Shown here: in pieces, positions 6,554-12,863 of the stretch
Position numbering within the stretch: the first letter of the stretch is position 1
How the letters are laid out: each line of letters begins with the position of its first letter
The notes under the pieces: generated by a model
Told to the model about the DNA's origin: nothing
Seen by the model: the letters and a program-made list of their open reading frames with translations, nothing else
Databases searched by the model: none
DNA from: Candidatus Calditenuis fumarioli
GTDB taxonomy: Archaea; Thermoproteota; Nitrososphaeria_A; Caldarchaeales; Calditenuaceae
Assembly (NCBI GenBank): GCA_030059665.1
Contig: JANVYR010000002.1
Location: 480,617 to 504,616, forward strand
Length of the DNA: 24,000 bases
Direction: 5' to 3'
Program-made: the position numbers and the translations under genes

Positions 6554-6602
6554 CGGGCAACGACACTTTCCAGCTAACCACTTGGCTCAATCTCAAGGCG
6601 CG

Positions 6603-9600
6603 CTAATTCTTCGTTAATGCCCCATTAGCCACCGCCTCCCTGATGTGCATCAGGACGTCTTCAATCACGCCCTCGGGGTTGATCCACCACTCGCTCGACC
6701 AGATCCTGTATATCCTCCAACCCAATCTCTCGAGGTGTCTCTGCCTGATCCAGTCCCTCTCCCGAGCTGTCCTGTGACTGTGGTACAGCCTTCCGTCGCA
6801 CTCTATCCCCAAGATGAACCGGCCGTTATGCAAGACTCCTATGTCGATCCTGTACCTTCCCACCCCGACCTGAGGGACGAGTTCCACCTCTTTGTTCAAT
6901 CCCTCATTGGTCAGGGCCGCCTGCAGACGTTTGAAGACCTCCTCCTCAAAGGGCGAGTCGAAAGGCTCTATGTGTGGATGTGAAGCTCCTCCCCTTTCGG
7001 CGTACTCCAAAAAGTCCCTCAGGACCCTTACGCCACGCGGGTCGTTGTCGTTAACCCTGATCATGTCGTATTTCATTGACGAGACGACCCATAGCATCTT
7101 CCTGGCTCTGGATATCAGGACGTTGATGCGTCTCTCTCCGCCTTCATTATTGATCGGCCCGAACGTCTTGCGCACCACTCCTTCGACCGGTCCGTAGGTC
7201 ATGCTGATTATCACGAGGTCTGCCTCCCTTCCCTGCACCGTCTCCAAATTCCTGACCAGCAGCCTGCCGTCCTCTTCCATCTCATCGATCAGATCGGCGA
7301 CTTCCCTCTCGCGATAGGGTAATGGAACGGTCAGGTGCTTCGCGTACCTGAAGGCCCTGAGCCTTTCCCTGTCCATGGGGCCCCTCCGATCAGATTGGGA
7401 TTGTGCCTTGTAGTCCTCGATGAGACCCTTTATTGCGTCCTGCTGCCTCTCGTTCATCGCCACTATCAGGATGCTCTTGTATTCCTTCGATTTCACCGCC
7501 TCGATGAGCCGCCAAAGAACTACTGCTGCCTCGTTCGGATTTACACCGGTTTTCGATATGTAGTTGCCGTTTTCGACGAAGAAGAACCGCACCCTCCTGT
7601 CATTAGGATCTGCTGAGGGATACACCACCAGACGGTTGTCGTAAAAATAAGCGTTGGAGAACGCGATGAGCGATTCGTGCTCTCCTCTGTAGTACCACCT
7701 GAGCCACTCCTCGCCGAAGACCCTGAAACCTGAAGAGTTGGTGTTGAGACATGCCTCCAGCAGACCCTCGGGAGTTTCGATTTCCTCGCCCTCCTCGTCC
7801 TCCTGCTGCTCGATCCTTCTCGTGAAGTAGTCCGTGGGTGGCATCTGCTGCTCGTCGCCGACTACTATGACCTGACGGCCTCTCGCTATTGCGGGGAGTG
7901 CTCGCTCCGTTTGCACCTGTGACGCCTCGTCGAAGACCACCACGTCGAAGAGCTGACCCTTGAGACCCCTCAGCAGCGTGGATACCATAAGAGGAGTCAT
8001 GATCAGGACGGGTTTGACCAGCAGTATCTCGTTTAAGTGGTCACGCATGATGCGGACGAGGGGGCGCCTCCTTCTGATCTTGAGCTGGTGGGCTGCGAGT
8101 TCCCTTAGCCTCATTATTGGACCTTTGAATAGCCGCGGACCACCGGGCAACGTTCTAAGCCCTAAGTTCAGTCTGATGGTGTGGATGACCTTGCTCCTCA
8201 ACGCGAGCGCTGCCAGCGCCACACTTCGGCCTTCTCCTAAGCGCTGCCCATCTCCATGTGTGTAGAGGCCATCGTAGTAACCGATGAGCTTCTGCATCGC
8301 TCCCTTAGGGCCCTCACGCACCTCGCTCAGCAGGCTTACGAGTGCCCTCCTCAGCTTATTACCCGACCGCTCGTAAGCGACGATAGATTCCCAGACCTCC
8401 GTGAGCTCGTCGAACGAACCGAAATTCTCAAGCAGTCTGTCAACGAAGCGCGAAAATTCCCGGTCGGCGATAACCCCTGCCAAGTCTAGGAGACGCTGAA
8501 GCTGAATCCCGAAGCTATCGCTTTCAGCCAGATCTTCTAGCACTATGACTGTGCGGTCGAGCAGCTCGGGGAGTACCAAATCCTTCCGGACGGCTTCCGC
8601 GTCAATAAGCCACTGCAGAAATCCACGCAGATCGCCTAGTCTCTTAGCGAGGCCCTGCAGGTCCAGCTCGGTATCGAAGAACTGCTGGGCGTACGCGAGC
8701 AATTCGTCCTCACCATCTGGAGATGGTTCGAATCCTAAAGCTTCGAGAGCGCGCTCACGACCATCAAGCAGTCTCCGCAGAGCCCTTTCTAGTTCTATTG
8801 TTGGCATCTTGTCTACTGCATGTCCCAGGAGCTGCCTGAGCTCGTTCACAAGTTCCTCCCTTAGATTCGAGGCATACTCGAGTTCGGAGAGCGTTCTATC
8901 CCTCTGGTAGTAGAGCTGACGTTTGATCTCTTTACGAGCGGTATCCGGTTCTATGCCGTACCTCCTCAGCTCGTGGGCCCACTGAGCGAGATGCCTGTGT
9001 CCCAGTAAAATCGTCTTGATTCTCGAGATCAGCCCCCGGGGGAAGAGCCTCATCATCAACTCATCTATGTCTTTCACCTCTTGGCTGAGATGATCGATCT
9101 TTCCATCCAACTCGAGGATCTGACGTGTGAGCTCCAGAGCGCGCTGCAACTTTCGTATGCTCAGCTTCACTTTCAGACCGTCCGTCACAACGTTCAGCAG
9201 CTTCACGCATTCACCGACACTCCTTTGGCCTTGAAGCCAGTTTAACAACCTCATTGATGAGGCGAGGTAACTTATCGCAAGAGACAGCTCCTCAGCGCTA
9301 GGATTCTGCTCCAGCCCGAGCCTGCTTCGGAGCCAGGCGACCGTCTGAAACAATGCGGGATCTAGGGTTCTCTGGCCTGTCTCTTCCCTTAGCTCAAAGG
9401 CGCTGAGTATCGCAGCGGAGTACTTCTGTTCTTCGAACCATCTGCGTACCGTATCCCTACCATGCTCCGCGAGAAGCTGCCGTAAAACCTGAACCTTTTC
9501 ACGCTTCTCCAGTAGCGCCTTGCTAGCGATTGCGAGGTCGTGTCTCATCTCGTTGCCTGAGACCAGGGCCAGATACTCCGAGTAGCGACCGTAGACGTTC

Positions 9601-12831: not shown

Positions 12832-12836
12832 CACGA
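12807..12836. repeat. Direct repeat copy 2 (candidate att site)
   Basis: Identical over 25 nt to 11205-11229, then C+CACGA versus T+CACGA-type continuation (one indel). The GC-rich flank to its right contains CTTTAATC about 24 nt upstream of the fragment's position 1, a possible original tRNA promoter. Confidence 0.9.
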
Positions 12837-12863
12837 ATTTCAACGCGCCGCTGGATTAAAGGA

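Follow-up and report, generated by a model that had tools for sequence, protein, structure and literature searches.

A low-GC stretch in the genome of the archaeon Candidatus Calditenuis fumarioli, organised around a tRNA-Lys gene, raises the question of whether foreign DNA was acquired there as one tRNA-integrated island or in independent events, and of how the tRNA came to carry an intron and a duplicated 5' end. The stretch of DNA analyzed (the window) comprises 24,000 nucleotides of contig JANVYR010000002.1 (G000:C2:480617–504616, where G000 is the genome under study); positions given below are those of the window unless a contig is named with them. An initial annotation, made from the nucleotide sequence alone, had read positions 6554–12837 as an accessory island centered on the tRNA. 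We consider it likely that this low-GC stretch reflects two independent acquisitions, namely, a gene encoding a helicase-nuclease and a tRNA-splitting, IS110-like element that was probably aimed at its site by guides. The G000 genome (1.567 Mb in 3 contigs, archaeal, 62% GC) was compared with 30 related genomes, including that of another species of the same genus (G005), and the DNA of the window was also present in hot-spring metagenomes.

RESULTS

A split and rebuilt tRNA-Lys gene

The tRNA-Lys gene of the initial annotation was recovered as an intact tRNA-Lys(TTT) gene at positions 11107..11229 on the minus strand (Rfam tRNA model, 40.6 bits). Default ARAGORN called no tRNA in the window, missing this gene because of its 30-nt intron, and with intron search it reported tRNA-Lys(ttt) with an intron of that length; in all, 52 tRNA genes were counted in G000, many of them with non-canonical introns. 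Comparison with the ortholog in G005 indicated that the gene is chimeric, its promoter-proximal nt 1–25 and the intron coming from an inserted element and the remainder being native. The intron (11175..11204, minus strand; core ATTGGGGTGATACCCCAAT) is placed at tRNA position ~25/26 and has a hairpin layout, ATTGGGG…CCCCAAT, which follows a copy of tRNA nt 1–25 and precedes the rest of the tRNA. The rebuilt tRNA is preceded, ~26–35 nt upstream, by an archaeal TATA-like box, TTTTAAATAG (11255..11264, minus strand), which is likewise borne by the element. The duplicated tRNA 5' end, which had also been noticed initially, proved to be real. At 12807..12835 (minus strand), the original 5' part of the tRNA-Lys gene (nt 1–25 plus 4 nt upstream) persists as a fragment together with its native upstream region; it matches the tRNA-Lys gene of G005 and is identical to the start of the rebuilt tRNA over ~29 nt. 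The whole element, ~1.63 kb in length (11175..12804, minus strand), is bounded by this duplicated 5' part. In G005, the orthologous tRNA-Lys gene carries neither element nor intron and stands directly between both flanks. From the comparison of the far copy, the near copy, and the G005 gene, a CG core can be proposed at both junctions, at 12805..12806 (minus strand), where the native tRNA 5' part meets the element (far junction), and at 11173..11174 (minus strand), where the element end meets the native rest of the tRNA (near junction); a crossover would then have occurred at the CG dinucleotide of tRNA nt 26–27. A 1633-nt tRNA "intron" that ARAGORN also returned in the search for introns was rejected, as it corresponds to the element itself, flanked by the 5' fragment on one side and by the rebuilt tRNA on the other.

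The element is present in G000 as three intact copies and one degraded copy. Besides the copy at tRNA-Lys, intact copies were found at a tRNA-Asn gene (element at C1:626875–628148; recombinase gene at C1:627179) and at a tRNA-Thr gene (element at C1:~756640–757915; recombinase gene at C1:756750), and the recombinases encoded at C1:756750 and C1:627179 are 67% and 74% identical, respectively, to that of the Lys copy. The degraded fourth recombinase copy (C1:325033-325899, minus strand) shows 32% identity, contains an internal TGA, and has no tRNA nearby. The Lys and Asn copies share the same anatomy: at the far end, the native upstream region and tRNA nt 1–25 are followed by element sequence, and at the near end, an AT-rich box ~30 nt upstream is followed by the copy of nt 1–25, the 30-nt hairpin, and the remaining tRNA. 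TTTAAAT boxes in the Asn and Thr copies occupy the same place as TTTTAAATAG in the Lys copy. The hairpin intron occurs three times in G000, in each case in an element-associated tRNA (Lys, Asn, and a Thr(GGT)-like tRNA), and is nearly the same in the Lys and Asn copies. Since the hairpin is found only in element-associated tRNAs and the G005 ortholog has no intron, the sequence comparison points to the element as the source of the intron. Moreover, the element is multicopy in G000 and absent at the tRNA-Lys gene of G005, as expected of a mobile insertion sequence (IS).

The Thr copy lies immediately upstream of a tRNA gene at C1:757916-758014 (plus strand), with no 5' fragment nearby. This tRNA was labeled Gly(ccc) by ARAGORN; its anticodon loop reads TTGGTAA and it has an intron of the element-type hairpin, and it is likely a tRNA-Thr(GGT) gene. 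ARAGORN further listed tRNAs with 0.3- to 2.1-kb "introns" at C1:624548-625735, C1:848399-850184, C2:180281-182467, C2:261843-263329, and C3:115106-115500; except where the element at tRNA-Lys or tRNA-Asn accounts for them, such long-intron calls are probably spurious and lie in GC-rich coding DNA. In metagenome contigs, the depth at 11786-11866 was ~3× that elsewhere in the element, as would be expected if this part is shared with the other element copies. Reads over 10900–13100 also included joints that skip the element, which were rejected as element-free variants and ascribed to chimeras from shared tRNA sequence; their short sides measured just 22 nt, and the inserted letters matched a tRNA-Arg gene at C1:116001.

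An IS110-like recombinase encoded by the element

The small single-ORF insertion of the initial annotation does contain an open reading frame (ORF; 313 aa) at 11549..12490 on the minus strand, which turned out to be no cargo gene; the insertion is itself the mobile element. Homologs of the family begin at M62 in the alignments, so that the true start is probably M62 and the coding region 11549–12307. Other short ORFs inside the element gave no family matches in Pfam, NCBIfam, or PHROG and look spurious. An AlphaFold model and a profile hidden Markov model (HMM) of the protein were built from an alignment of 30 homologs (A1). The model (pLDDT, 96.5) was compared with the PDB by Foldseek, and the best 13 matches were all IS110-family recombinases (E ≈ 2e-5; probability, 1.0; TMq, ~0.6), including IS621 (8wt6/8wt9), ISCro4 (9t56), and TIGR-TasR (9mty). 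In the PDB, the HMM matched 9mty_A, annotated as "Transposase IS116/IS110/IS902 C-terminal domain" (E, 5.6e-9), with further matches to TasH (1e-5) and IS621 (0.021). In the HMM alignment, a KSDEND motif (K140, D142, D145) lines up with the catalytic NKTDTVD motif of IS621, and D69, D104, K140, and D145 are kept across the 30 homologs. The nearest models in the ESM Atlas are archaeal hypothetical proteins and viral clusters with PF01548/PF02371. The predicted fold thus has the two-domain make-up of the IS110 family, RuvC-like DEDD plus Tnp_20, and the alignment argues for the presence of the RuvC catalytic acidic residues; the protein would be expected to act as a recombinase.

In the relatives, there were up to ~50 matches to the element protein. 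A protein homolog search with the element protein as the query returned nothing beyond the paralogs in G000 itself, and a contig scan with the same query gave no match. When the protein of a relative was used as the query in the contig scan, loci were found in metagenome-assembled genomes (MAGs) of Candidatus Caldarchaeum, in the hot-spring "Archaeon HR01/HR02," and in Nitrososphaerota MAGs.

Putative guide sequences in the 3' noncoding region

In the 3' noncoding region, a conserved stretch located ~35–90 nt beyond the stop codon of the ORF contains a putative target-guide segment (11462..11515, minus strand), predicted to lie in an internal loop of a conserved stem. In the Lys copy, GAAGAGCGACG (11505–11515) equals tRNA-Lys nt 20–30 on the same strand, an 11-nt match that runs across the proposed core, and GTTAAAAGCCC (11462–11472), located 33 nt beyond GAAGAGCGACG, equals the reverse complement of tRNA-Lys nt 30–40, also over 11 nt. 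Among all tRNAs of G000, the longest match to the Lys guide region was that of tRNA-Lys itself (11 nt), with the others at ≤9 nt; in shuffled sequences, matches of ≥11 nt were obtained in 0.7% of trials. The Asn copy has, at the corresponding positions of the element, TAGAGCGCC, equal to tRNA-Asn nt 18–26 (9 nt), and TTAACAGCCG, equal to the reverse complement of tRNA-Asn nt 27–36 (10 nt), and the Asn and Lys guide matches lie at equal distances from the CG core. The Thr-adjacent copies, both in G000 and in the relative G024, where the element is next to tRNA-Thr(GGT), contain a reverse match to the anticodon arm of tRNA-Thr. In the three-copy alignment, variable columns were concentrated in the guide windows (12/36 versus 14/90; Fisher P = 0.049), and RNAalifold assigned the two guides to an internal loop flanked by long conserved stems. 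This layout resembles the loop with which IS621 bridge RNAs bind their target. No bridge-RNA or IS110 noncoding RNA family in Rfam matched the element. An array of guides like that of TIGR-Tas was considered and rejected, as none was found by Tandem Repeats Finder. These matches are suggestive, not proof, of a guide-based, bridge-RNA-like targeting of tRNA insertion sites, in which a bridge RNA would be expressed from the element, and the guide mechanism is the least certain part of the overall explanation.

Likely separate origins of the helicase-nuclease gene and the element

Across the tRNA from the element, the giant 1440-aa helicase-nuclease of the initial annotation is present at 6603..10925 (minus strand) and consists, according to Pfam, of DUF4011, an SF1 helicase (AAA_11/AAA_12), and a PD-(D/E)XK nuclease (MTES_1575/DUF559). 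Its closest families in PADLOC are PDC-S37 (3.8e-181) and Hhe (4.6e-106), and its best NCBIfam scores were for ProA (600 bits; cut-off, 1500) and Hhe (510 bits; cut-off, 2000). The protein is probably an Hhe/PDC-S37/ProA-related protein of the anti-viral kind, as judged from these profile matches, and its predicted role is anti-viral. The gene was found in none of the 30 related genomes searched. No mobility gene accompanies it, and no repeat bounds it. A 150-aa ORF at 10633-11085 (minus strand), which overlaps both the start of the helicase gene and the 3' flank of tRNA-Lys, has no family matches and is probably no gene.

The composition of the region also sets it apart. The drop in GC content described to the right of the ligase gene is real, with 1-kb windows over 6500–13000 ranging from 0.49 to 0.56 compared to the genome mean of 0.62. 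The helicase gene has a GC content of 0.567, in the bottom decile (9th percentile) of G000 genes, and ranks at the 7th percentile for GC and the 92nd percentile for word composition against genome windows of equal length. For the ORF of the element, the GC content is 0.495 (2nd percentile of genes), and for the whole element (11175–12804) it is 0.479, which is the 1.3rd percentile among genome windows of equal length, with a word composition in the top 1% (99th percentile). Lines of 37–43% GC to the right of the tRNA, on which the initial annotation had relied, do exist; they represent the AT-rich noncoding ends of the element and not its overall composition. The reported move in codon choice toward AGA and AAA was borne out as well: in the element ORF, AGA makes up 48% of Arg codons, compared to 6% genome-wide, and AAA (38% versus 15%) and GAA (33% versus 13%) are similarly raised, with the codon usage of the helicase gene intermediate between that of the element ORF and that of the genome. 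Both the helicase DNA and the element DNA are compositionally foreign.

The arrangement of the flanks in relatives also bears on the number of events. In G005, the tRNA-Lys gene stands directly between homologs of window −758..340 and of the window from 12939 onwards, and therefore G000 has extra DNA on both sides of the tRNA. On the tRNA 3' side, the extra DNA consists of conserved genes plus the helicase gene (window 341–11106), and on the 5' side, it consists of the element; both are absent at the tRNA-Lys gene of G005. The conserved genes form a block at 470–6553, encoding an M50 protease with a PDZ domain, a hypothetical protein, a class II aminoacyl-tRNA synthetase (Asp/Lys/Asn type), a second hypothetical protein, and an ATP-dependent DNA ligase. 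This block adjoins tRNA-Glu in the relative G002, and in G000 it lies between window positions ≤340 and the helicase gene. The genes to the left of the helicase thus appear, from gene order, to be rearranged relative to those of the relatives, at a tRNA hotspot. At 6554–6602, the left boundary where a copy of the tRNA-Lys 3' end had been suggested as a check, neither such a copy nor any other tRNA fragment or attachment repeat was found.

The initial annotation was correct in taking the tRNA-Lys gene as the anchor of a defense-type gene and a mobile gene, since the helicase-nuclease lies on one side and the single-ORF element on the other, and its proposal of at least two acquisition events is supported by the extra DNA on both sides of the tRNA relative to G005 and by the lack of any repeat that would bound a single island. 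There is foreign DNA at 6554–12837; however, it falls into two units, and the limits of one of them, the element (~11175–12804), are set by the duplicated tRNA 5' part. The picture of a classic tRNA-anchored island did not hold, as there are no attachment repeats at both edges and no integrase that targets tRNA genes. In the comparison with relatives that had been called for, the helicase gene occurs in 0 of 30 related genomes and the tRNA-Lys gene of G005 lacks the element, as expected of acquired DNA; the genes on the left are conserved and rearranged.

A further repeat was noted elsewhere in the window. A 264-bp sequence at 16449-16713, between the gene at 15678-16835 (minus strand) and the IGPD gene at 16839 (plus strand), recurs at four other places in G000 with 89–97% identity, and its last ~26 nt match numerous tandem copies ~65–70 bp apart at C1:490470-490634, at C1:307469 onwards, and in relatives. 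This looks like a CRISPR leader with a single repeat, i.e., an orphan leader or a mini-array.

Alternative explanations

Three other explanations were weighed against two independent acquisitions. The initial annotation had itself allowed that the GC values might lie within normal gene-to-gene variation, with no foreign DNA at all. The helicase gene, at merely the 7th to 9th percentile of genome GC, would agree with this. The element stands further out, at the 1st to 2nd percentile in GC and, in word composition, at the 99th percentile, and the helicase gene is missing from the 30 relatives just as the element is missing from the orthologous site in G005; ordinary variation is thus refuted for the element and most improbable for the stretch as a whole. 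It might instead be supposed that the helicase gene and the small ORF arrived together, as one tRNA-integrated island or the remnant of a provirus brought in by a tyrosine-type integrase, and indeed both are compositionally foreign and flank a single tRNA. Yet no tyrosine integrase was detected with Pfam, and the sole mobility gene is IS110-like. The element has a tRNA 5' duplication of its own as its boundary, and no repeat occurs on the helicase side; the GC contents differ (0.567 for the helicase and 0.479 for the element), and the helicase gene is unique, whereas the element is multicopy at other tRNAs. A single island is therefore largely refuted by the anatomy of the locus, and we regard it as quite unlikely. 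A somewhat better case can be made for an intron-containing tRNA-Lys gene and a 5' fragment that were both older than the element, with a native intron and a tyrosine-recombinase-like insertion at tRNA nt 1–25 as attB. The 25-nt identity of the far and near copies could act as an attB/attP core, and gain and loss of archaeal tRNA introns are frequent between species. Against this stand the confinement of the hairpin to element-associated tRNAs in G000, its near identity in the Lys and Asn copies, the intron-less G005 ortholog, and an element protein that is IS110-like and no tyrosine recombinase, so that a pre-existing intron also seems rather unlikely.

The preferred explanation, an IS110-like element that splits tRNA genes and was acquired independently of the helicase gene, has points against it as well. 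The element protein had no match in direct scans of Pfam, NCBIfam, and PHROG. The catalytic serine of the Tnp domain was not located, there being no strongly conserved Ser in the alignment of the C-terminal domain, and the Lys copy has a W where the family keeps a G; therefore, the Lys copy may be inactive. The CG-core model is built on two copies and the tRNA of one relative, and beyond the core, a few positions of the far fragment do not agree with G005. With respect to the guides, the matches, at 9–11 nt, are short and derive from 2–4 copies, the outcome of the Fisher test is marginal, and no covariation supports the structure given by RNAalifold; when donor-side guides were sought with k-mers from the element-end junctions, only the junctions themselves matched. 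Copies in relatives lay away from tRNAs in 11/11 cases in one set and in 7/8 in another, which indicates that tRNA targeting is not a trait of the whole family; it looks specific to a subfamily, as programmable guides would predict. Finally, the scores of the helicase for ProA and Hhe fall under the curated cut-offs of NCBIfam.

DISCUSSION

Comparison with known systems

The bridge-RNA (IS110) recombinases form a new class of enzymes that rearrange DNA in a programmable manner. The G000 element resembles IS110/IS1111 elements such as IS621 and ISCro4 in having one recombinase ORF, a two-domain fold, an aligned catalytic DxxD, and noncoding flanks, and, like the bridge RNAs of IS621 and ISCro4, its structured noncoding region contains candidate guides that match the target. 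It differs in being archaeal, in being too divergent for Pfam, in inserting into tRNA genes, and in carrying a promoter, a tRNA 5' half, and an intron that rebuild the disrupted tRNA. In addition, the core of IS621 is CT, whereas that proposed for the G000 element is CG, and the bridge RNA of the latter is only putative. TIGR-Tas shares the IS110-like fold (the 9mty match to TasR) and RNA guidance as a concept; unlike TIGR-Tas, the G000 element has no tandem guide array, and its architecture is that of a single element, as in an IS. Elements with tyrosine recombinases that use tRNA genes (SSV/pNOB8-type integrases, bacterial integrative and conjugative elements, and prophages) are alike in their site-specific insertion into tRNA genes, the rebuilding of a functional tRNA, and the partial copy left behind. 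However, these usually target the tRNA 3' half, and the G000 element uses the 5' half and D-arm, supplies an intron and a promoter, and encodes a protein with a RuvC/Tnp fold; no gene for a tyrosine recombinase was found in the region by a search for integrase Pfam families.

The closest parallel in layout is the tRNA-Thr(GGU) gene of Caldiarchaeum subterraneum, where an insertion of 1.8 kb was described together with a 5' tRNA fragment and with an intron located at the boundary of the insertion (Sugahara et al. 2012, PMC3293823). That insertion contains an 813-bp "DNA recombinase" ORF (~270 aa) present in six copies, and integration of mobile elements was proposed by its authors to create tRNA introns (PMC3293823). 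The two cases are alike in their Caldarchaeales host, in multicopy elements, in a distal 5' fragment together with a rebuilt, intron-bearing tRNA (intron at 24/25 there and at ~25/26 here), and in differences between populations or lineages at the tRNA locus. They differ in that the targets in G000 are tRNA-Lys(TTT), tRNA-Asn, and tRNA-Thr(GGT), all in one genome, and in that an IS110 fold assignment and guide targeting are proposed for G000; the likeness seen here is one of layout. By analogy, the G000 element may represent the recombinase class behind the tRNA-Thr case of Caldiarchaeum; the relatives of the element protein in Candidatus Caldarchaeum MAGs are suggestive only as to kinship with the Caldiarchaeum recombinase.

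As for the helicase-nuclease, it shares with the single-protein anti-phage helicase-nucleases of the Hhe/PDC-S37/ProA type the combination of DUF4011, SF1 helicase, and PD-(D/E)XK nuclease, as well as stand-alone occurrence and horizontal acquisition. It differs from Hhe and ProA in scoring under the NCBIfam curated cut-offs, in its archaeal host, and in being known here from sequence alone.

Proposed mechanism and implications

We propose that a single DUF4011 helicase–nuclease gene was gained independently between the DNA ligase gene and tRNA-Lys, and that an IS110-family element inserted in the tRNA-Lys gene, within its D-arm/anticodon-stem region, at the CG core (nt 26–27). Such an insertion would have stranded a 5' fragment, made up of the native promoter and tRNA nt 1–25, at the far end of the element, and from the near end the native 3' part would have received a promoter box, nt 1–25 in a second copy, and the 30-nt hairpin intron. 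The far junction would then read native nt 1–25, CG, and element, and the near junction would read element (promoter, nt 1–25, and hairpin), CG, and native rest. Because a complete tRNA would be rebuilt by the near end, the cell would keep its sole tRNA-Lys(UUU) gene, complete and intron-containing. The site was most likely chosen by short guides that match the target on both strands and are probably carried in a bridge-like RNA from the conserved 3' noncoding region, and comparable insertions would have taken place at tRNA-Asn and tRNA-Thr in G000. The broader account, which we advance only tentatively, is that of an archaeal transposon of the IS110 family and bridge-RNA type in which RNA guides pick tRNA genes and insertion just after the D-arm brings a new promoter, a 5' half, and a non-canonical intron, with the tRNA remaining functional and its former 5' end persisting as a fragment.

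The helicase-nuclease would be a further archaeal example of DUF4011 (Hhe-like) proteins of the anti-viral type gained horizontally at a tRNA hotspot. If the account of the element is true, it offers a working mechanism for the origin of non-canonical tRNA introns and scattered tRNA fragments in archaea such as the Caldarchaeales, and the creation of archaeal tRNA introns and fragments by mobile elements, as proposed in 2012 (PMC3293823), would become a testable mechanism. A lineage that aims its guides at tRNA genes and rebuilds the tRNA that it splits would, moreover, show how such elements can live within essential genes.

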